Below, piece by piece: positions 14,473 through 48,765 of a stretch of 49,153 bases of DNA. A model generated the notes under the pieces. That model was not told where the DNA came from and searched no databases. It saw nothing but the letters and a program-made list of their open reading frames with translations. A program made the position numbers and the translations under genes. Positions within the stretch are counted from its first letter, which is position 1, and each line of letters begins with the position of its first letter. Origin of the DNA: Bacteroidia bacterium (GTDB lineage: Bacteria > Bacteroidota > Bacteroidia > 2-12-FULL-35-15); contig JBBSPS010000003.1 of the NCBI GenBank assembly GCA_038258655.1, positions 1 to 49,153 of the forward strand, given 5' to 3'.

Positions 14473-16185
14473 ATGGCAACACTGGACGAAATATTTAATT
14501 CAAGACGCGATACCCGCCATTTTACTAGTGAAATAGTTCCCGATGAAGTTATAAAAAAAGCGCTGCAAGCGGGCTATACTGCTCCATCTGTTGGGTTGAC
14601 CGATGCCACAAGATATTACATCATAAGATCGGCCGAAATAAAACAGGGGATCAAAAAATTATTTGAAGAATACAATCAGAAAGCAATTCAACAGATAAAA
14701 AATGAAGATCAAAAGATTGCATACTCATCATTAAAATTAGAAGCGATCTCTGAAGCTCCGATAGGATTGGTTATATGTTATGATCGATCTGTCCTAAATG
14801 ATTTTTCCATTGGAACAATTGCAAGTAATGAAACGCTTAAATTTAGTTCGGTTTGCGCTGCTCAAAATATTTGGCTTTCATTAACAGAACAAGGCTATTC
14901 GATGGGGTGGGTATCTATTCTCAATTATTATCAGTTTAAAGAAATACTTGGATTATCGGAAAATGTCGAGCCACTCGGATATTTCTGCATTGGCAAACCG
15001 GCCACTGATTATGAGAAACAACCTATGCTACAGCAATTAAAATGGAAAGATAAATTGAAGGAACCGATGGTTACAGAAATAAAAAATATTCCTGATAATT
15101 TTCAACGTCAGCAGAAACTAAAAGTCCTCTCTTTTGGAGAAGATTTAGGTGAGGCGAATAAATTATTAGGCGAAGAACTCCAATTTATTATTGATAATAA
15201 AACTAAGCCACTTGGTTCATTGGGGAAATTAGAATTAATTGCAAAACAGATCGGAGAAGTATTCAAAACAAAAAATCCAAAAATAAATAATCCGCATATA
15301 ATTATATTTGCTGCCGATCACGGGATAGCTCAGCACAATGTAAGCGCTTATCCGCAGGAAGTAACCCGGCAAATGGTTGACAATTTTTTGTCAGGCGGTG
15401 CAGCTATCAACGTGTTCTGCAAACAACACAATATAGCGTTCACTATAGTTGATGCGGGGGTTAATTATGATTTTCCACCTCATGCATTATTGATAAATAA
15501 TAAAATTGGAAAAAGCACCCACTCATTTTTGCATGGGCCGGCCATGACCATGAAACAAGTGCATGAATGTTTTAGTAAGGGTGCAGAAGCAGTGAGTAAG
15601 ATTGTTGATGAAGGATGTAACACCATAGGCTTTGGCGAAATGGGTATCGGCAATACATCAACGGCTTCTGTTTTAATGAGTTTATTGTGTGCTATTTCAA
15701 TTGAGCAATGTATCGGAAAAGGAACAGGAGTTAATGATAAAAAACTTTCGGAAAAAAAGGGTTTGCTTAAACAAGCTATTAATAATTATAATGGAGATAG
15801 AGAGTTATTCAACATTCTTGAATATTTTGGAGGATTTGAAATAGTACAAATGGCTGGAGGAATGATGGAGGCACATAAAAATAATATATTGATATTGGTA
15901 GATGGATTTATTAGCAGTGTCGCGTTTTTAATTGCATTTAAAATTGATCCTTCTATAAAACGAAACGCAATATTCTGTCATTGTTCAGAAGAAAAAGGAC
16001 ATAAAATACTTATGGAATATTTACAAGTGGAAGAACTATTAAAATTAAATATGCGTTTGGGCGAAGGGACAGGTTGTGCAGTGGTTTTTCCTATCATTCA
16101 ATCTGCAATAGCTTTTTTAAATGAGATGGCGAGTTTTGAAAGTGCCGGGGTAAGTAATAAATTAACTGTTTCAGCGAATGCTTAA
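14473..16185 (+). CDS. cobT: Fused BluB-like 5,6-dimethylbenzimidazole synthase / CobT phosphoribosyltransferase
   Basis: N-terminal nitroreductase BluB motifs (RRDTRHF, APSVG, LKLEAI, AQNIWL, MGWVSI); C-terminal CobT motifs (KTKPLGSLGKLE, FAADHG, GEMGIGNT, MRLGEGTG). Confidence 0.9.
   Translation: MATLDEIFNSRRDTRHFTSEIVPDEVIKKALQAGYTAPSVGLTDATRYYIIRSAEIKQGIKKLFEEYNQKAIQQIKNEDQKIAYSSLKLEAISEAPIGLVICYDRSVLNDFSIGTIASNETLKFSSVCAAQNIWLSLTEQGYSMGWVSILNYYQFKEILGLSENVEPLGYFCIGKPATDYEKQPMLQQLKWKDKLKEPMVTEIKNIPDNFQRQQKLKVLSFGEDLGEANKLLGEELQFIIDNKTKPLGSLGKLELIAKQIGEVFKTKNPKINNPHIIIFAADHGIAQHNVSAYPQEVTRQMVDNFLSGGAAINVFCKQHNIAFTIVDAGVNYDFPPHALLINNKIGKSTHSFLHGPAMTMKQVHECFSKGAEAVSKIVDEGCNTIGFGEMGIGNTSTASVLMSLLCAISIEQCIGKGTGVNDKKLSEKKGLLKQAINNYNGDRELFNILEYFGGFEIVQMAGGMMEAHKNNILILVDGFISSVAFLIAFKIDPSIKRNAIFCHCSEEKGHKILMEYLQVEELLKLNMRLGEGTGCAVVFPIIQSAIAFLNEMASFESAGVSNKLTVSANA
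15121..15155 (+). repeat. REP-like palindromic repeat inserted in frame in the BluB-CobT linker
   Basis: AAAGTCCTCTCTTTTGGAGAAGATTTAGGTGAGGC (KVLSFGEDLGEA) resembles the Bacteroidetes CCTCTCC-TT-GGAGAGG-n-GGGTGAGG repeat type. Confidence 0.65.
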
Positions 16186-16978: not shown

Positions 16979-17538
16979 TAAGACATACAGAAACAGTTTT
17001 ACCGAAGGGAGTCTGTTATGGGCAATCGGATATTTTATTGCAAGAACCATACTTGGAAAAGTTTGATAAAATAGTAAAAAGCGTTAAATATAAAAACGCA
17101 GTAATTTATTCCAGCCCACTTAAACGATGTACCTTTCTGGCGGAACATTTCAGAAAGAATAATGATAACTACCCTCCAATAATTACTGATGATCGCTTAA
17201 TGGAAATGAATTTTGGTGATTGGGAAATGAAAGAGTGGAATAACATTGATCCTGATATGATGAAAAAGTGGATGGTTGATTTTGTAGATGAAAAAGTGCC
17301 AAACGGAGAATCCTTTACTGAACTTGATGCTAGGGTAGCTAATTTTATTGAGAATGAATTATTGAAGTGCAAAAAGGAAGTTGCTATAATTATTACTCAT
17401 GCAGGAGTTATCAGAAGTTTTTTGTGCAAAGCGATGAATTTACCTTTAAAAGAGGCATTTCGTAATGATGTTGCATACGGCTCAGTAAAAATAGTTGAGG
17501 TATACCAAACAAACTTAGAATTACGAAAATCTAGCTAA
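16963..17538 (+). CDS. cobC: Alpha-ribazole phosphatase (histidine phosphatase)
   Basis: LIRHT, CYGQSD, SSPLKRC, EMNFGDWE and THAGVIR motifs; follows cobS. Confidence 0.88.
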   Translation: MEVYLIRHTETVLPKGVCYGQSDILLQEPYLEKFDKIVKSVKYKNAVIYSSPLKRCTFLAEHFRKNNDNYPPIITDDRLMEMNFGDWEMKEWNNIDPDMMKKWMVDFVDEKVPNGESFTELDARVANFIENELLKCKKEVAIIITHAGVIRSFLCKAMNLPLKEAFRNDVAYGSVKIVEVYQTNLELRKSS

Positions 17539-17592
17539 AGGGAAATAAAAAATATTTCTCAATAAAAACCGATTTTTAACAACGAGAACCCA

Positions 17593-18711
17593 TTAACTTC
17601 CTAATTCTTTAGAAATCATCTTTTCAGCATCTATGTTTTTCATACCATAGTAATTTATTGCGTTTTGTTTTAATGGATGAGTGCTCCATTCTTCCCAAAT
17701 ATTCGAATATGGATCGTATCCACATTTAAGAGGTTTACTATATATATCATCCGGATTTTCTATATACGCCCTGCAATCTGAGCACATATAACGAAATTCA
17801 CAAACTTTACATATGTTTATTTTATCCTTTGTAATTTCCCAATGTGTTCTAAATTCTGGATTATCTACAGCATCTAATAAGGAGTTATCATAAACATGTC
17901 CATAGATGCTTTTCATGGAGGGGCAATTGCGGATGAACCCTCTTTTGTCGATAGCAATTTTTTTATTCAGACAGGAATTGAATTGTGTAGCTTCACTAAA
18001 CGCTCTGATATTTATTCTAAAATACATGGAATGAATATTTCCACAACAATTTTCAGATGTGATTACTGAATCGGAATACGAAACCGTTAAGTTATTAAGT
18101 TCGAAGGAATCTCCATTATTATCAAAGGCACTATAAATAACGATACTAAGCAACCGTGGATACTTTGTACCGATTTGTTGTATTGTTTCTTTTGAAAAAT
18201 ATTCGGAGAATGGCATAAGTAGTTCAATGCTTCTCAATTTGCTATCATTAAAATAGTCTAAATATACTTCAAGCTGATGTGGTGATATCGAATAATAAAA
18301 TCGTAATTGCAAGGCCTGGCAAATGAGTTGATCCAGCTGTTCTTTTATATTCTTCAATGGATGTTTACTATGCTCATCAAAATCGATAATGCAATTCGTA
18401 ATGCTGTTCGGAACATCGTAAACAGGTTTAAATTTTGTAAATCCTTTATCCAGCTTGCTTACAATAGTGACAAATTCTTTTTGAATCAGAAAATCAAAAT
18501 ATTCGTCGATAATATCATCATATTCTCCATTAAAAATATTCTTTATTTCTCCAATTGTTTTTTTTGCACATTTAGTAAGAATGCTGTATAATTCATTTGG
18601 TATAAATTCAAAATTATTTCGTTGGATATCATATATAATAGATCGCTTGGCTCCTTTTACAGGGATACAATTTGCAAACAATAAAAAATAACTAGCATCT
18701 GGATGATCCAT
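17593..18711 (-). CDS. gwsS: Grasp-with-SPASM system SPASM-domain peptide maturase (cluster 1)
   Basis: N-terminal CIPVKG..RSIIYD (RRE-like), NSCLNKKIAID..G.IRNCP, CKVCEFRYMCSDCR and KPLKCGYDPY; no CX3CX2C motif. Start placed at ATG 18711. Confidence 0.9.
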   Translation of the reverse strand: MDHPDASYFLLFANCIPVKGAKRSIIYDIQRNNFEFIPNELYSILTKCAKKTIGEIKNIFNGEYDDIIDEYFDFLIQKEFVTIVSKLDKGFTKFKPVYDVPNSITNCIIDFDEHSKHPLKNIKEQLDQLICQALQLRFYYSISPHQLEVYLDYFNDSKLRSIELLMPFSEYFSKETIQQIGTKYPRLLSIVIYSAFDNNGDSFELNNLTVSYSDSVITSENCCGNIHSMYFRINIRAFSEATQFNSCLNKKIAIDKRGFIRNCPSMKSIYGHVYDNSLLDAVDNPEFRTHWEITKDKINICKVCEFRYMCSDCRAYIENPDDIYSKPLKCGYDPYSNIWEEWSTHPLKQNAINYYGMKNIDAEKMISKELGS

Positions 18712-18712
18712 T

Positions 18713-18931
18713 TTAAAAAATTGGGGGTTTGGAAATAGGTGAATGGTGTAAAAACACCGAAGCATGTTTGGTTTTATAAAAACTACAAATTACTTCCGTT
18801 TCTTGCTTATCTCCACTTGTCTTTTGATCTATAAGGTATTGAAAGTTCAAAGGAAATTTAATACTGTTTTGCTGTATCATTTGTTTTAACGAAACCAGCT
18901 TTTTTACTTTTTTTTGTGTCATACATGTCAT
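18713..18931 (-). CDS. Small hypothetical protein between gwsG and gwsS (start uncertain: 18931, 18922 or 18880)
   Basis: Stop lies 1 nt before the gwsS start; a positional and weak sequence counterpart exists in cluster 2. Confidence 0.55.
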   Translation of the reverse strand: MTCMTQKKVKKLVSLKQMIQQNSIKFPLNFQYLIDQKTSGDKQETEVICSFYKTKHASVFLHHSPISKPPIF

Positions 18932-19904
18932 TTTTAATAAGATAGTTCGCAATGTCCTTTTCTATATTGTAATTTCCATTAAAAGAAACCCAGTCAAATT
19001 GCCCAACAGGATTTACTTCCAGAAAAACATAATTGTCATTTTTTGTTTTAATAACGTCAATGGAGCCGGAATCTAACCCTAACTTTTTCATTAAGCGTTT
19101 TAATTTTTTTTCTATATCAACTGGCAACTTATACGGAACATATCTATTTGGAAGGGTGTCATTGTAATTCCTGAAATCAATCTGTGTCCGTTCATCAAGC
19201 TGACTAAATATAGCTATTGACTTAAATTTGCCGTCCAAATAAAAGGTTCTTATTTCAAACTCTTTTTCAATGTACTCTTGCAATAAGGATGGAAATATAA
19301 TTGCCTCTAAGCATGCATCCTTATTATCAACCAAACTACTCAACATCGCATAATATTTTTTATCATCCTCCTTAATTCTCACACAATCAGTAAGGGATTT
19401 GGTTATGTATTTTTTATCTGAATTTTGCAGTTCAGTTTCGATGGAATTTGTAACAATGGTAAAAGGAATTTCCAATCCACATTTTTTAGCAATGGCTAAT
19501 ACGTGTATTTTATTTAAGTTTGATGTTTCTACTGCGTTCAACCAAGGAACATCGTTAAAGGAAAGCGCAATAGTAGAATAGAAAAGCTGAAATTCCTTTT
19601 TGAGGTAATTAATAACAACATGTTTGCTTTCAGCTGAACAATTCAGATTCTCATAAAACTCAAAAGAAGTTTCGCTAATCTGTCGTCTGAACCAGACAAT
19701 ACCTATTTCTTTGTCATTTAACCTTGCGTTCCCTTCTCGTATGATTAGTTCCTGAGCTTTTTTGCTTAAAGAAAACTGCATTTGGGTGGTGTCCAATAAT
19801 TCATCCCCGGTAAGTAAAAAATAATTTGCATTCCATGAGGTTAACCAATCCATCACTAATTCCGTGCTGAATTCAGATGTTGCCTGACTTAAAATAAGGA
19901 TCAT
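18858..19904 (-). CDS. gwsG: Grasp-with-SPASM system ATP-grasp peptide maturase (cluster 1)
   Basis: MILILS...STELVMDWL, VWFRR, LNKIHVL..AKKCGL, FPSLLQEYIEKEFEIR, AIFSQ, DFRNY, PNRYVPY and FLEVNPVGQF motifs. Confidence 0.92.
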   Translation of the reverse strand: MILILSQATSEFSTELVMDWLTSWNANYFLLTGDELLDTTQMQFSLSKKAQELIIREGNARLNDKEIGIVWFRRQISETSFEFYENLNCSAESKHVVINYLKKEFQLFYSTIALSFNDVPWLNAVETSNLNKIHVLAIAKKCGLEIPFTIVTNSIETELQNSDKKYITKSLTDCVRIKEDDKKYYAMLSSLVDNKDACLEAIIFPSLLQEYIEKEFEIRTFYLDGKFKSIAIFSQLDERTQIDFRNYNDTLPNRYVPYKLPVDIEKKLKRLMKKLGLDSGSIDVIKTKNDNYVFLEVNPVGQFDWVSFNGNYNIEKDIANYLIKNDMYDTKKSKKAGFVKTNDTAKQY

Positions 19905-19920
19905 CTTTATGAATATAAAA

Positions 19921-19953
19921 CAACCACCAAGTCATAAAGTGACTTGGTGGTTG
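19921..19953 (-). terminator. Hairpin (terminator/attenuator or RNA-stabilising) between precursor and gwsG
   Basis: Perfect 14-bp stem CAACCACCAAGTCA/TGACTTGGTGGTTG with a 5-nt loop, followed by TTTTAT on the minus strand. Confidence 0.75.
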
Positions 19954-19958
19954 GATTA

Positions 19959-20102
19959 TTACAAATTGTCAAAGTAATCAGTATCTCTTCCTCTTAAGGT
20001 TACTGTATATCCACCACCTTTAATTTTTGCTGATTGCTCCATTTTAATTTCAGATTTCTTAAATAGATTTGCATCTAATTTTTTCAATTTTAATTTTTTC
20101 AT
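19959..20102 (-). CDS. RiPP (graspetide) precursor peptide, 47 aa, double-glycine leader
   Basis: Manual translation MKKLKLKKLDANLFKKSEIKMEQSAKIKGG-GYTVTLRGRDTDYFDNL*; AT-rich TAAAATAAA immediately before the ATG; directly upstream of gwsG; below the ORF track cutoff. Confidence 0.85.
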   Translation of the reverse strand: MKKLKLKKLDANLFKKSEIKMEQSAKIKGGGYTVTLRGRDTDYFDNL

Positions 20103-20487
20103 TTTATTTTAGAATTAAATTATTGCCTACTCTGTTTAAAGCTTTTCGGCTACCGCTTTATGATATAAGTCCAAAGGATAGAAAGAAGTTGTAATACTTA
20201 TTTGTGAAAATAATCCATTATTAAAAAATCACGAGAAGGGGGGTGACGGATTTTTTAGGTTTAAACTAAAGCAAGTGAACTAATAGCAAAATTAGTTTTT
20301 TTTATCTTCTTAATTTGAAGCAAAATAAACGACTATTTTTAGAAAAAGCAAATTTTTAGCCGCGTAAATTTAAAAAGAAATGAATGTGTATTTACAAAAA
20401 ATTAAAACATGAAATATCATGCACATTTGTGCAAAAAAACATTGAAAAAATGAAGGATTTGATGTTGAGTAACCATTAAATTTAAAA

Positions 20488-21621
20488 TTATAAACTCTTA
20501 CTGATAAGTTCTGCCACTTCTTCACCAACTACGCTTCCAATAGCAACACCCATTCCACCCATTCGTACAGCGCAAAATACATTTTTACTTACTGCTTTTA
20601 CTATGGTTTTCTTCTGCGGGCCAAGGCCCATAATTCCGCTCCAGCGCATATCAATGGTATAGTGTGTATAAGGAAGGATCATGTTCTTAAGTAAATTATC
20701 CAATTTATTTTGTACCAGATTTGTTAAACCGAATTCAGTAGTTTCTTCCGTTTTAAAATCAAGATTTCTGCCACCTCCGAATAATACACGATCACCTATA
20801 TTACGGAAATAATAATAGCCGCTGTCATAATGAAACGCACCTTTTAATTTTAAATTTTTGATTGGATGTGTAACTACTACCTGTGCACGTGCCGGATTAA
20901 CAGGGTAATCAGGCAATAACTGTTTGGCAAATCCATTGGTGGCTATGATAACGCGTTTGCAAGTGATATGAATTCCATCAATGGTGTGTATAGCAACTTT
21001 TTTACCATCATCATTGAACTCTTTTACTTCAAAGCCATTAATTATCTCTACACCCAAATTGCGCACTTTTGCGATCAAAGCCTTCATCATTTTACCAGTA
21101 TCAATTTGGCCTTCAGCGCTGCTTTTGATCATATTCGTTATATGATTTAAGCCCATTGTTGTGATGCTTTTAGCGGCATCCTGAAAAGTATTTTTTGTAC
21201 CTGTAACAGGCATTATATTTTTATTTAAATAACTTATTTTTTCATTGCACTCTTCAAATATTTTTTTTGAATCAAATACTTCATACCCTCCGTAATTATG
21301 AAAATCAATGGCTTTATCCCCTAAGTTTTTGCGTAATTTTTGTAATCCTTTCCATCGCTTTTCTATCAGGGAAAATACTTCTGCTTCAGGGTTTTTTTTC
21401 AGGTCGTCTAATATTTCTGTAGGGCTTCCAATGCAAGTGAAACCGGCATTTTTTGAGCTGGCACCGCTGGGTAACATGCCTCGTTCGAGCACAATTATTT
21501 TGAGTGACCGGTGTTTTTTTTTGAGATGCAAAGCGGCATTTAGCCCAACAATACCACTTCCTATAATTGCTATATCCACATTATTAAAAAAGGTGGTTTG
21601 TTCCCAATAACTTAAATTCAT
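20488..21621 (-). CDS. FAD-dependent oxidoreductase (DAO/PuuB-like)
   Basis: IIGSGIVG, GASSKNAGF, GYYYFRN and RMGGMGVAIG motifs. Confidence 0.85.
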   Translation of the reverse strand: MNLSYWEQTTFFNNVDIAIIGSGIVGLNAALHLKKKHRSLKIIVLERGMLPSGASSKNAGFTCIGSPTEILDDLKKNPEAEVFSLIEKRWKGLQKLRKNLGDKAIDFHNYGGYEVFDSKKIFEECNEKISYLNKNIMPVTGTKNTFQDAAKSITTMGLNHITNMIKSSAEGQIDTGKMMKALIAKVRNLGVEIINGFEVKEFNDDGKKVAIHTIDGIHITCKRVIIATNGFAKQLLPDYPVNPARAQVVVTHPIKNLKLKGAFHYDSGYYYFRNIGDRVLFGGGRNLDFKTEETTEFGLTNLVQNKLDNLLKNMILPYTHYTIDMRWSGIMGLGPQKKTIVKAVSKNVFCAVRMGGMGVAIGSVVGEEVAELISKSL

Positions 21622-45127: not shown

Positions 45128-45313
45128 ATGGGTACAGACAAATTAATGAATGCTTTTGAAGCATTTAAGGTAAAAAACCTAGAAGAAGTAAAAGGTGGCT
45201 ATTATAGGGTCACTTGGACAAATGGTAGTGGACTTTGTGATATTCTAAATACTGAAACGGGCGTGGAATATTGCAATCAGGCTGATAATTACTCAGCTGT
45301 TGGACCTGCATAG
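45128..45313 (+). CDS. RiPP (graspetide) precursor peptide, 61 aa, double-glycine leader
   Basis: MGTDKLMNAFEAFKVKNLEEVKGG-YYRVTWTNGSGLCDILNTETGVEYCNQADNYSAVGPA; first gene of an ATP-grasp/SPASM cluster. Confidence 0.85.
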   Translation: MGTDKLMNAFEAFKVKNLEEVKGGYYRVTWTNGSGLCDILNTETGVEYCNQADNYSAVGPA

Positions 45314-45356
45314 CATTTCTTTTTTAATAGCAAAGTAATTAAGCATGCTTTAATAC

Positions 45357-45397
45357 AACCAACGATTATAAATTTTTATAGTCGTTGGTTTGTTTAT
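45357..45397 (+). terminator. Hairpin after precursor 2
   Basis: AACCAACGATTATA/TATAGTCGTTGGTT stem (one G-U pair) followed by TGTTTAT. Confidence 0.65.
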
Positions 45398-45417
45398 CGA
45401 AGTTAACAAAAGATTTT

Positions 45418-46632
45418 ATGAAAAAATATTGTTTAATTGTTTTACTTGTATGTTCTAATCTCCTATTTAGTCAAAATAAGATTGTTCTAAATCGAATAGC
45501 CGAACCAAGTTTATTAGAACTTCTCAATGCCAGTAATGCTTTAATATTGTTTAATTTAAATGACCCTTTTTTTTCCTCAACAAAAAATAAAATTGTGTTC
45601 CCTGCTATTGATTTTATTCCAACGGATACAGCATTTTCATTGCTCTCCAAAAAATCAATTGGAAATTCAAGAATTACAGATGAAAAATTTGTTCTGGTTT
45701 TTAACTACAAAACAAAAACACCTGTTATTTTTGGCTCAAGCATTCCTGATTTTACAAATTCACGGGGAGTTATTTTAACCCCTGAGAAGACGGTTTCCTT
45801 GCAACTTAAAACTGTAGATAATGGGATGATTAAATATTTTATAACAAATGAAAAAAAACAATATTTACAATCAAGCAGTATTCCTCATTTAGATGCTTCA
45901 CCAATCGACCAATCCTTTTGGTTAACATTGAAAAATAATTATACTAAAGCAGGTGACTTTGGTACAAAAAAAACAGCTTTTTCCATTGCAGTTTCTGATA
46001 TCAATAACAATGGCATTTTTAATGATGTCGGAATTGATAAAGTGTTTATTGGTAATGAGAATCAAAAGTATTTTGAAATATATGATAATGAAAATAATTA
46101 CAACTCATGTATTTTAAAACCAAACATAATTTTTGAATCTTGTGGGAAAAAATTTATATTTAATAAGATAGATCCTGATGGTGAAGCTGTCTATTTTAGT
46201 CCCTATTCAGGTGAAAAGGAAAGCGATATTAAAGAACTAAAAAATATTCCCGATTTTAATTTTATCACATTTAAGGGCGACACAACATCAATTCTTAAAC
46301 TAAAAGAGAAAGGCAAATATTTGTATATTGATATATGGGCGAGTTTTTGTAATCCTTGTATAAAGGATTTATCAATTTTTGAAAATTTACAGAAAGAATA
46401 TAAAGGTAAAATTACTATTTTAGGCTTAGTAGATAAGGTTACTATTTTAGAATTGACAAATTTAATAACTAAGTATAATATAACTACACTACAAGGATTA
46501 TCTTCTTCTGAGATTAACAAAAAATTATTATTAAGTGGTTACCCACATGGAATTTTATTTTCTAAGGATGGTAAATTAATTAAAATGAAAATGAATTCTA
46601 CTGAACTTACAACATTTTTAAAAGAGCATTAA
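45418..46632 (+). CDS. Exported protein with C-terminal TlpA-like thioredoxin domain
   Basis: Signal peptide from ATG 45418; IPDFNF, IDIWASFCNPC and GYPHGILFSKDGK motifs. Confidence 0.8.
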   Translation: MKKYCLIVLLVCSNLLFSQNKIVLNRIAEPSLLELLNASNALILFNLNDPFFSSTKNKIVFPAIDFIPTDTAFSLLSKKSIGNSRITDEKFVLVFNYKTKTPVIFGSSIPDFTNSRGVILTPEKTVSLQLKTVDNGMIKYFITNEKKQYLQSSSIPHLDASPIDQSFWLTLKNNYTKAGDFGTKKTAFSIAVSDINNNGIFNDVGIDKVFIGNENQKYFEIYDNENNYNSCILKPNIIFESCGKKFIFNKIDPDGEAVYFSPYSGEKESDIKELKNIPDFNFITFKGDTTSILKLKEKGKYLYIDIWASFCNPCIKDLSIFENLQKEYKGKITILGLVDKVTILELTNLITKYNITTLQGLSSSEINKKLLLSGYPHGILFSKDGKLIKMKMNSTELTTFLKEH

Positions 46633-46644
46633 TGTTAAGCGTTT

Positions 46645-47546
46645 ATGATTTTTATTTTCGGTCTGCATAATGATAGGTCAACAATTGATGTACTAAATTG
46701 GATCCGCAAATTAGAAATAACTAGTGTGCTAATAACTGATTTGAAAGAACTTCAACAACATTTTTGCACTATAAAAAATAAGAAAATTAAAAGTATTTGG
46801 TATAGACAACATAATGAGATTCGATTTGAGAATTTTTGTATTACAAAGAATGAAAGATCATTTCTTTATTTTGAATATGAATATTATTTGAATTTTATTC
46901 AGTCCTCCTTAAAGAATATACGAACATTGGGTGGAGGTTTTGATAAAATGAATCTTAATAAATACCAAACCTTAAATGAGGCCAATAATATTGGTCTACT
47001 CACCCCCTCCACTATCATCACAACATGCAAAAAAGAATTAAAAGAATTTCATTATACATTTAAAAAAATAATAACAAAGCCAATTTTTAATGGCATATCA
47101 ATTGATTTAAACAATGAATATCTTGGTATAATGTATACCTCAATTGTGGAGGAAGAATTGATAAATTCTTTACCTACAACTTTTTTTCCAAGCTTATTTC
47201 AAGAATATATTGAAAAAGAAATTGAATTGCGTATTTTTATTTAGACGGGAAATGCTATTCAGCGGCAATATTTAGTCAGTCGAAATACAATGTGGTAGAT
47301 TATAGGGACAAAGATAAAATAAGAAATCCTCGTACCATTCCATTCAAATTACCTAAAAATATTGAAGATAAACTTGTTTTACTCATGAAGCAATTAAATC
47401 TCAATACAGGTTCAATTGATATAATAAAGACGTTTGATGGTCGTTACGTGTTTTTAGAGGTAAACCCCATTGGTATATATGATGAGATTTCAATAAATTG
47501 TAATTATTACCTTAATAAAAAAGTCGCTGAGTGGTTAACTAACTAA
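46645..47546 (+). pseudogene. gwsG: Grasp-with-SPASM ATP-grasp maturase (cluster 2), split by a 1-nt frameshift
   Basis: ORFs 46645-47244 and 47292-47546 join if one T is added to the T5 run at 47234-47238, giving ...EIELRIFYLDGKCYSAAIFSQSKYNVVDYR...FLEVNPIG, colinear with cluster-1 gwsG. Confidence 0.85.
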
Positions 47547-47555
47547 TACTCTAAT

Positions 47556-47738
47556 ATGAAAATAGAAGATGTAATTAACAAAGAAATATTAGAGAAGTTA
47601 CCTGTTTTATATAGAACGCTCACAATTAGAGAGAAAAATAAAGATGTTACCAATCCACAAAAAATAAAATATTTTACGATGGCTCAACCGTTTTACAAGG
47701 CAACCATTTTACCTTTCAATTTTAATAGTAATGAATAA
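47556..47738 (+). CDS. Small hypothetical protein between gwsG and gwsS
   Basis: 60-aa ORF filling the gap and overlapping the gwsS start by 8 nt. Confidence 0.7.
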   Translation: MKIEDVINKEILEKLPVLYRTLTIREKNKDVTNPQKIKYFTMAQPFYKATILPFNFNSNE

Positions 47739-48765
47739 ACTATACTTTAAATTATTTTCAAATTGTGTTCCTGTTAAAGGTTATAGCCAATCCATTATTT
47801 ATGATTTACAACTTTCTAATTTTGAATACATTCCAAACTTATTATTTGATATACTTATTATCAGCGATGAGATGCCTGTCTCAAAGATTAAAGATTATTA
47901 CAATAATGAATATGATGATGGGATAGATAATTATTTAAAATATCTTGAGAGTAAAGAATATGGATTTTTTACATATGAACCTGATTTATTTCCTAAAATG
48001 GATTTATACTGGGACAACGCTTTTGAGATAACAAACCTTATAGTAGAAGATAATTTCCAACTTTTATTAAAATCTAATTTGTCATTGAATGTAGATAATC
48101 TTACCATAATATATAGTAGTTTCGAAAATACTACCATGCCTAATTTGCAAAAACTATTAGGGAACATTAATTGTCAATCTACTCAGTTTTTTATTTTATA
48201 TAATAAGGATATACAGAAAATAATAGATGAGTTGTGTTATACTTTAAAAAAAATAACTCAAATTGTTATTTATAATGCTCCAGAAAATGTTAAAAAAACA
48301 TATGGAATACTTGATGTTACATTTATTACTAAATCTTTTCAATTCACAAACACTTCAAATGTTAATTTAAATTATTTTTCACCTAACATATTTATTTATA
48401 CTGAATCTCAAAACCATCATACATATTTTAATCGCAAATTATATATAAACAAAAAAGGCGAAATTAAAAATTCACCAGAGAGCCCATATGTTTTTGGAAA
48501 TCTTGAAGATATAAAAAACGATGTAGAATTACGAGATTACATAAATAATCCTAGTTTTCAAAAATTATGGCATATAACAAAGGATAAAACATTTGTTTGT
48601 AAGGACTGTGAATATCGTTTTATGTGCGTGGATAATCGTATTCCGAAGACCATTAACAATGAAACATGGTTTCATGAAACTGAATGTAATTATAACCCAT
48701 ACATAGCTAAATGGAAAGGAGAGCATGAATATAAATCATTACTAGAATGTGGAGTCATTATATGA
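47731..48765 (+). CDS. gwsS: Grasp-with-SPASM SPASM-domain maturase, divergent form (cluster 2)
   Basis: YFKLFSNCVPVKG..SIIYDLQ, HHTYFNRKLYI, CKDCEYRFMCVDNR and CNYNPY motifs. Confidence 0.85.
   Translation: MNKLYFKLFSNCVPVKGYSQSIIYDLQLSNFEYIPNLLFDILIISDEMPVSKIKDYYNNEYDDGIDNYLKYLESKEYGFFTYEPDLFPKMDLYWDNAFEITNLIVEDNFQLLLKSNLSLNVDNLTIIYSSFENTTMPNLQKLLGNINCQSTQFFILYNKDIQKIIDELCYTLKKITQIVIYNAPENVKKTYGILDVTFITKSFQFTNTSNVNLNYFSPNIFIYTESQNHHTYFNRKLYINKKGEIKNSPESPYVFGNLEDIKNDVELRDYINNPSFQKLWHITKDKTFVCKDCEYRFMCVDNRIPKTINNETWFHETECNYNPYIAKWKGEHEYKSLLECGVII

Follow-up and report, generated by a model that had tools for sequence, protein, structure and literature searches.

Does a reading frame of 47 codons, lying beside an ATP-grasp gene and a SPASM gene in a genome of the Bacteroidia, encode the substrate of these two enzymes, and what would they make of it? 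This question is raised by a locus on the minus strand of the window, by which we mean the whole stretch of 49,153 nucleotides analysed here (contig JBBSPS010000003.1 of assembly GCA_038258655.1). A first-pass annotation of this DNA had recognized an intact grasp-with-SPASM cluster, i.e., a peptide gene accompanied by genes for a graspetide-type ATP-grasp ligase (gwsG) and a SPASM protein (gwsS), and this view is borne out by matches of both proteins above the curated cut-offs of their families (TIGR04192 and TIGR04193) and by a precursor with a Gly-Gly (GG) leader. As judged from sequence comparison, the locus comprises four genes of recognizable family, and the peptide is one of a small family whose conserved, Lys-rich leader ends in Gly-Gly. 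We read the region as a compact four-gene operon of the grasp-with-SPASM graspetide system of Bacteroidia, and for this reading, including the mechanism proposed below as a whole, we estimate a probability of roughly 75%. The locus adds one member to a class that is catalogued and chemically uncharacterized, and its precursor gene is genuine.

The four-gene module and its precursor peptide

The four genes occupy 2.5 kb on the minus strand in the order precursor, hairpin, gwsG, a small gene designated LPL, and gwsS. The 47-residue frame reported by the first-pass annotation was found at 19959-20102, and its translation, MKKLKLKKLDANLFKKSEIKMEQSAKIKGGGYTVTLRGRDTDYFDNL, matches exactly. The peptide starts with MKKL; its leader comprises residues 1-30, with Gly-Gly at positions 29-30, and the predicted core (residues 31-47) consists of 17 amino acids, including three Thr and three Asp and neither Cys nor Lys. 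Located 54 nt downstream of this gene, gwsG (18858-19904) encodes a protein of 348 residues that matches TIGR04192 over the entire profile (266 bits, cut-off 230, positions 1-318 of 318), and gwsS (17593-18711, 372 residues plus stop codon) likewise matches TIGR04193 along its full length (328.3 bits, cut-off 175, positions 1-342 of 342), so that the comparison with these two models suggested by the first-pass annotation gave scores above both curated cut-offs. The longest frame of gwsS (17593-18765) was not adopted: the TIGR04193 match begins at residue 26 of this frame, where the paralogues begin too, so the start is likely the second ATG at 18711. GwsG also matches the MvdD pre-ATP-grasp domain (PF21068, 29.6 bits) and is homologous to several solved graspetide ligases, namely 5ig9 (E 2.6e-25), 7m4s (9.1e-24), 7mgv (CdnC, 6.1e-17), and 5ig8 (1.5e-15), of which we take 5ig9 and 5ig8 to be MdnC and MdnB. 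Its scores against the microviridin models TIGR04185 and TIGR04184 (145 and 140 bits) are far under the respective cut-offs (425 and 475).

A phmmer search against 1,835,955,588 cluster representatives (E <= 0.001) returned three proteins: the window peptide itself, a 46-residue relative designated P0003 (E 1.5e-11, 67% identical), and a protein of 1302 residues, which was disregarded as a relative since it has no matched stretch. An identical 47-residue protein is present in a public protein collection, so at least one gene caller has found the precursor; a word-indexed search of a 5.8-billion protein collection returned only this protein of the window itself. When metagenomes were scanned with the precursor alignment, none of 588 pattern matches was confirmed, and a scan of genome contigs with the gwsG alignment, the patterns being narrow, yielded only 3 loci.

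The closest relatives of GwsG, each 48% identical, are encoded on contig G025:C178 of a Bacteroidia metagenome-assembled genome (the same record as L042; G025 is also paired with L013) and at the metagenome locus L048, and together with the window protein they form one clade (support 0.98 in a FastTree analysis of 31 sequences). Both loci carry an open reading frame (ORF) of 64-65 residues directly 5′ of gwsG, whose leader aligns with that of the window peptide (KKL..LF..S.IKME...I[KR]GG), and both G025/L013 and L048 have the gene order of the window, i.e., precursor, gwsG, overlapping LPL, and gwsS. The search for a similar ORF next to gwsG homologues, which had been advised earlier, has therefore located a same-leader peptide at the same place in both orthologous loci. 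G025 and L048 also have a porin-like gene and a methyltransferase-like gene in common as neighbours, while the flanks of the window module are different: on its upstream side lies a gene for an FAD oxidoreductase of the DAO type, and on its downstream side, in convergent orientation, are cobC, cobS, and a gene that fuses BluB to CobT. Since the orthologous loci share the module but not the flanks, the conserved unit is the four-gene module. The oxidoreductase gene (20488-21621) was considered as a further member of the cluster and set aside, as it encodes a generic DAO-family protein and does not occur at the G025 and L048 loci.

On a broader scale, 32 distinct gwsG loci were examined by one fixed rule, and in 22 of them the 1.8 kb upstream of gwsG included, on the same strand, an ORF of the GG-leader type; the same rule was satisfied by 40 of 3000 random 1.82-kb segments of the window genome. 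The rule called for an ATG-initiated ORF of 30-110 residues in which residues 1-12 include two or more Lys/Arg, GG falls at residues 15-46, and the remaining tail has a minimum of two Thr/Ser and one Asp/Glu; the 32 loci were those for which 250 nt or more of DNA upstream of gwsG was available, and three others were skipped because theirs was too short. Two or three of the 22 positives look false (e.g., the ORF in L023 and the first one in L017), one positive, L028, resembles a microviridin locus, and some of the ten misses have a precursor farther upstream.

In the gap that leads from the stop codon of the precursor to the start of gwsG, a terminator scan and fold energies identified a 14-bp G+C-rich hairpin with a T-run (19921-19953, minus strand; -25.3 kcal/mol, z -8.6, none of 200 shuffles being equally stable). 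A stable hairpin separates the peptide gene from gwsG in all three orthologous loci, with stems that are unrelated in sequence (z -4.5, -5.9, and -5.7); a position that is kept while the stem sequences differ fits a conserved attenuator, and the element is likely a partial terminator yielding an excess of precursor mRNA. Taken together, four independent lines of evidence, namely P0003, the leaders of the orthologues, the enrichment of GG-leader ORFs, and the conserved hairpin position, indicate that the precursor ORF did not arise by chance. A weak candidate for a promoter element of the Bacteroidetes type, the -7 box TAATTTTG, lies at 20287-20294 on the minus strand, approximately 185 nt 5′ of the precursor ATG. 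The motif TANNTTTG, which we assume to be the consensus of this box, has a single minus-strand match in the intergenic region 20103-20487; it is not enriched in the window (75 found, 86.6 expected), and a scan for sigma-70-type promoters gave 15 sites versus 17.6 expected, which is not above chance.

GwsS and its small neighbour

In the first-pass annotation, the SPASM gene was taken to encode an ordinary maturase, a view at odds with the absence of the radical S-adenosylmethionine (SAM) cysteine motif from all aligned members of the family. Of the 105 members aligned, 96 came from the protein search and 8 from loci, the remaining one being the window protein; CxxxCxxC was found in none of them, and the only recurrent Cys residues in the first half of the barrel were C131 (92 of 105) and C107 (23 of 105), with no conserved group of three. 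The Cys residues of the SPASM region, in contrast, are almost invariant: Cys 301, 304, 310, and 330 (window numbering) are kept in 105 of 105 proteins and Cys 223, 247, 263, and 313 in 103. Cys 15 is also kept in 103 members, and position 27 is Cys in 89 members and Tyr in the window protein.

An AlphaFold2 model of GwsS (pLDDT 92.3, pTM 0.88) consists of an N-terminal domain resembling a RiPP (peptide made on ribosomes and modified after translation) recognition element, or RRE (residues ~6-93, with strands at 8-37 and helices at 39-77), a radical-SAM-like barrel (~98-222), and a SPASM domain with the 8 conserved Cys (223-330). Fold comparison with Foldseek and VIA-align 2 placed PqqE, BtrN, TigE, CteB, and SuiB in a Z range of 11.3-12.4, i.e., PqqE 6c8v (Z 12.4; 217 residues aligned, root-mean-square deviation (rmsd) 5.6, model residues 98-350), BtrN 4m7s (Z 12.4), TigE 8vpo (Z 11.8; 308 aligned, residues 6-340), CteB 5wgg (Z 11.6; 285 aligned), and SuiB (Z 11.4). 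Residues 6-93 alone resemble the N-terminal peptide-binding domain of TruD 4bs9 (Z 8.2, rmsd 2.8, 86 aligned) and the N-terminal domain of the heterocyclase 4v1t (Z 8.1), and the N-terminal peptide-binding domain of MccB matched the model as well (Z 6.9); the domains of TruD and MccB are presumably RREs. At the level of sequence, no PDB chain matched GwsS, the best hit being a designed TIM barrel (E 0.24). Thus, GwsS shares with CteB (5wgg/5why), SuiB (5v1q-5v1t), TigE (8vpo), and PqqE (6c8v) with PqqD the combination of a winged helix-turn-helix domain, a barrel, and a SPASM domain with a complete Cys set, whereas it differs from them in the lack of CxxxCxxC in all 105 aligned members of its family and of any PDB match by sequence. 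According to the model, it has the architecture of an RRE-bearing radical-SAM maturase without the ligands of the SAM-cleaving cluster, and it is unlikely to be a working radical-SAM enzyme. Because the window core has no Cys, GwsS would not be a thioether-forming radical-SAM enzyme either; the cores of G025 and L048 do contain a Cys, in place of which Tyr is present in the window peptide and Phe in P0003, and since this Cys is not conserved, a Cys-dependent thioether cannot be the conserved role of GwsS in the clade.

These observations also bear on the alternative that survives best, namely that GwsS is catalytically active and adds a second modification to the core (a C-C or C-O cross-link, or oxidation of Tyr or Thr) before or after the esters are formed, drawing on its Fe-S clusters and possibly on a site that binds SAM or a cluster in an unconventional way, in which case the product would be more than a macrolactone. 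The retention of eight SPASM-region Cys residues in 103-105 of the 105 proteins, together with a barrel modelled at high confidence, suggests something more than a scaffold, and Cys 15, 27, and 131 are common enough (103, 89, and 92 of 105) that they might form another metal site; further modification of the peptide by the SPASM enzyme is also the view expressed in a published survey (PMC8939145). What makes us regard such activity as unlikely, if still a serious possibility, is the absence of CxxxCxxC and of any three-Cys group in the N-terminal part of the barrel, the Tyr at position 27 of the window protein, the Cys-free core with Tyr or Phe in place of the Cys of the G025 and L048 cores, and the partial loss of the SPASM Cys set in five of nine paralogues of the same genome. 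These five paralogues (C3:47743, C236, C255, C189, and C7), in which several Cys of the first SPASM cluster are replaced (247, 313, and partly 263 and 223), keep the CxxCx5C...C set and form a 'half-SPASM' subclade.

The small gene between gwsG and gwsS had been noticed by the first-pass annotation and left unexplained; motif alignment and position now identify its product as a member of the published LPL family. It most likely extends over 18713-18922 (69 residues plus stop codon), overlaps the 3′ end of gwsG by 65 nt, as in G025, and ends 1 nt before the second ATG of gwsS (18711). The start at 18922 was chosen because residues 5′ of an internal Met (K.K.L.SLKQ) are conserved with G025 and L048, and a TTG start of the ORF, which lies within 18713-18952, was rejected in its favour. 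The segments FPLNF, near the N-terminus, and HHSPISKP, near the C-terminus, correspond in alignment to the motifs LPxxY and FYKPISK in 17 small ORFs that occupy the same position in the window genome or in related loci, the match being one of alignment and position in a family that has no HMM. LPL was present in 12 of 13 related loci inspected, and in all three clusters of the window genome in which a gene of ~420 codons splits gwsG from gwsS, it lies directly upstream of gwsS; as it stays beside gwsS when gwsG is separated, LPL appears to be tied to GwsS and not to GwsG. No LPL candidates were found in the protein collection, and a best score of 0.86 in the ESM Atlas, with no family attached, serves only as a lead. 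A predicted GwsS-LPL complex gave a median score of 0.30 against a mark of 0.32, which, as a value obtained without controls, speaks neither for nor against binding. At the metagenome locus L058 (242-2433), a gwsG of 361 codons abuts gwsS with no separate LPL ORF, and an LPL-like tail may be fused to GwsG.

There is a precedent, described for rosaritide MirC (PMC13097080), of a graspetide ligase whose activity and stability can depend on a non-catalytic protein encoded alongside it. By analogy, GwsS and/or LPL could play the same partner role in the window, although the partners are unrelated (PPIase-associated in the MirC system versus SPASM and LPL here).

The core, the proposed pathway, and competing readings

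In the following, Gly1 of the core is residue 31 of the precursor. The window core and that of P0003 have in common Gly1, Tyr/Phe2, Thr3, Thr5, Leu/Ile6, Gly8, Arg/Lys9, Thr11, Asp12, Tyr13, and Asn16, whereas Asp10 and Asp15 are replaced in P0003 by Asn and Ser, respectively, leaving Asp12 as the only conserved acid. When G025 is aligned as well, the invariant columns are Thr5, Gly8, Thr11, Asp12, and Asn16 (precursor T35, G38, T41, D42, and N46). With a single conserved acid, the simplest conserved chemistry is one ester from Thr3 or Thr5 to Asp12, and this is most likely the conserved link. The hairpin put forward earlier, with two Thr residues (T3/T5) joined to several downstream Asp residues, is not supported by conservation, since Asp10 and Asp15 are not kept in P0003; a two-ester hairpin in the window species is nevertheless possible.

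In microviridins, the core motif is of the TxKxPSD/KxPSD type and two ligases are used. The absence of a KxPSD-type motif from the window core, which the first-pass annotation had pointed out, can be read directly from residues 31-47, which include no Lys, Pro, or Ser. Like the microviridin and chryseoviridin pathways, the window system has a homologous ATP-grasp ligase (E 2.6e-25 to 1.5e-15) and is expected to use leader-guided ester chemistry between Thr/Ser and Asp/Glu; unlike them, it has a single ligase with SPASM and LPL partners and no acetyltransferase, and it lacks both the KxPSD-type core and the PFFARFL-type leader that we associate with those pathways. An LFxx[S/F] segment, represented by NLFKKS in the window leader, recurs in 9 of the 22 candidate precursors (counted by eye) and may correspond to the hydrophobic motif that leaders of other graspetides contain. 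A locus of the microviridin type is found within the same genus (L028/L032, G018:C1:189650-191586), where two tandem ATP-grasp genes follow a peptide with a PFFAKFL leader, and is distinct from gws.

Based on these features, the following pathway is proposed. The operon would be transcribed from a promoter upstream of 20102, with the hairpin stopping most transcripts past the precursor gene, so that precursor mRNA would exceed enzyme mRNA. The leader (residues 1-30, with its LFxxS/F-type motif) would bring the peptide to the enzymes, its most likely docking site being the RRE-like domain of GwsS, with LPL taking part. GwsG, with ATP, would acyl-phosphorylate a core Asp, and attack by the hydroxyl of a Thr would then close a side-chain macrolactone; the conserved link would most likely join Thr3 or Thr5 to Asp12, while Asp10 and Asp15 could give at most two more, species-specific esters. 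The part of GwsS would be that of an Fe-S partner or scaffold, or else that of a redox enzyme of a non-radical-SAM kind. After cleavage behind Gly-Gly, the 17-residue product would have a mass of 2004.954 Da minus 18.011 per ester (1986.944, 1968.933, and 1950.922 Da for one to three esters; the calculated monoisotopic mass of the full precursor is 5418.952 Da), and it would probably be exported in trans by one of three C39-peptidase ABC transporters encoded elsewhere in the window genome (PF03412; contigs C33, C72, and C96), which could also make the cut behind Gly-Gly. Transporter-like genes stand beside gwsS in loci L049, L052, and L055, and an ABC ATPase gene with an HlyD-like gene does so in L043 (read from sequence in each case).

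One more specific version of this scheme is offered tentatively, as a possibility that we would not yet favour: GwsS may be a degenerate radical-SAM protein with an RRE and auxiliary Fe-S clusters that, together with a disordered LPL, is the obligatory substrate-presenting partner of GwsG, and a core with a single conserved Thr-Asp pair may yield a one-ring macrolactone of a topology not yet described. If this is true, a whole class of approximately 1600 GwsS homologues has been mis-assigned to thioether or radical chemistry.

Several points weigh against the operon and its proposed mechanism. The precursor scores 14.4 bits (E 0.027) against TIGR04149, the model of GG-type radical-SAM-modified RiPP precursors, whose cut-off is 25; it has no match in Pfam and reaches the cut-off of no curated precursor family. 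A search with its profile gave no match in the order's 66 other genomes or in 400 others sampled from the class, and with P0003, G025, and L048 as the only relatives detected, the family is rare. Alignment of the G025 core requires gaps, and we infer the Thr and Asp partners of the conserved link purely from conservation. For the role of GwsS as a leader-binding Fe-S partner or non-radical redox enzyme, leader binding and the partnership with LPL are read from fold and gene order, and Tyr27, where 89 of 105 relatives have Cys, could mean that this copy is impaired. Finally, the module contains no transporter gene, and no RNA run containing the region was found, which is evidence in neither direction.

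Another reading is that the cluster is a decaying or silent paralogue that makes no mature product, as might be suspected of a minimal copy, with Tyr27 and neither a 'cluster 23' gene (see below) nor a dedicated transporter gene, in a genome with many gws clusters that holds eight intact gwsG genes and broken ones too, one of them in the same window. We nonetheless judge decay to be improbable: the module retains its attenuator hairpin and four full-length ORFs reported to score above curated cut-offs (the precursor itself being under that of TIGR04149), the same minimal layout recurs in two further organisms or samples, the GwsG of which is 48% identical, and the leader and the conserved core positions are kept in P0003. 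That the 47-residue frame arose by chance, or encodes a GG-leader bacteriocin that stays unmodified and has no connection with GwsG, the true substrate of which would lie elsewhere, is hardly credible even in an AT-rich genome with many short ORFs and for a peptide under the cut-off of every curated precursor model, given the strength of the P0003 match, the conserved leader at the same place in three of three orthologous loci, the low random rate of such ORFs, and the failure to find a second copy of the peptide in the genome or another GG-leader ORF in the module.

Relation to known systems and occurrence

The grasp-with-SPASM system has been described by Makarova et al. 2022 (PMC8939145) as 'branch 5' of the graspetides, represented by approximately 190 Bacteroidetes loci, whose MKKL...GG precursors are hyperdiverse. 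Its recurring parts, according to that survey, are the ATP-grasp protein, the TIGR04193 SPASM protein, a 'cluster 23' protein, and LPL, whose gene in every case lies immediately upstream of that for the SPASM protein; the cluster 23 gene, encoding a secreted protein or lipoprotein, is stated for almost all branch 5 loci. The same system appears as 'group 14' in the RODEO graspetide grouping (PMC13097080), and a 2026 preprint on Porphyromonas gingivalis integrative and conjugative elements mentions that the gws precursor, immediately upstream of GwsG, "is often not called" (10.64898/2026.08.04.741601). In view of these descriptions, the novelty that the first-pass annotation attached to the locus and its uncalled precursor was set too high. 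As to its statement that no characterized product with this core is known, our search of the full-text literature likewise found no characterized gws product, a result that is not proof since most subscription journals lie outside its coverage. The graspetides characterized to date are all protease inhibitors, according to two papers.

The window locus agrees with branch 5 in its TIGR04192 and TIGR04193 proteins, its MKKL...GG precursor, the position of LPL directly upstream of the SPASM gene, and its Bacteroidia host. It differs in that the module has neither a cluster 23 protein nor a transporter, LPL overlaps the 3′ end of gwsG, the precursor is of a rare family (three relatives) below the TIGR04149 cut-off, and the core is free of Cys, whereas a conserved Cys is stressed for many branch 5 precursors in PMC8939145. 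No cluster 23 gene was found between 17593 and 20487 or in the two orthologous loci, and we consider it accessory and not defining. Three features make the locus new or useful: a rare Cys-free core of 17 residues in which only one Thr-Asp pair is conserved, a layout reduced to four genes, and evidence that the SPASM partner is not a canonical radical-SAM protein. As a test case for the class, the cluster is about the simplest available, having its four genes within 2.5 kb, a single precursor, and no further genes for tailoring, and it would permit clean tests of whether GwsG needs GwsS and/or LPL, of the role of a SPASM protein without the radical-SAM motif, and of the ring topology.

With respect to occurrence, TIGR04192 was above the cut-off in 25 of 401 sampled Bacteroidia genomes, the window genome (G000) included, and matched at E <= 1e-20 in 12 of 68 genomes of the order, family, and genus to which the window belongs. 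Among 2777 candidates, 1617 were homologues of GwsS at E <= 1e-10, many of which are already named "grasp-with-spasm system SPASM domain peptide maturase"; close relatives from this search (P0006-P0011) are 62-73% identical to GwsS. The window genome (4.3 Mb) alone has eight TIGR04192 genes above the cut-off, on contigs C17, C214, C239, C255, C7, C189, C236, and C3, each with its own gwsS and mostly with unrelated GG-leader cores, whereas other sampled genomes of the class have 1-3 matches each; such an expansion of gws paralogues is unusual, and eight intact paralogous clusters make this genome a rich source. For window positions 17400-20400, contigs from two additional studies (runs X2 and X3; an outdoor metagenome and an unlabelled sample) include low-depth fragments that are identical to the window and show no informative differences, the uncovered parts carrying no meaning; the same strain therefore seems to occur beyond its probable source sample, which may be represented by a third run, X1.

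A second gws cluster is located on the plus strand of the window (45128-48765). It begins with a GG-leader peptide of 61 residues (45128-45313), followed by a protein of 415 residues with a ResA/thioredoxin-like C-terminus (45385-46632; 43 bits), a gwsG that is broken into two overlapping frames (46645-47244 and 47175-47537), which may reflect a frameshift or an assembly error, an LPL ORF (47556-47738), and a gwsS (47731-48765; TIGR04193, 190.6 bits). Elsewhere on the plus strand, an ORF of 570 residues (14473-16185) fuses a BluB-like 5,6-dimethylbenzimidazole synthase (TIGR02476, residues 2-197) to CobT (TIGR03160, residues 234-560), and this fusion is followed by cobS and cobC.

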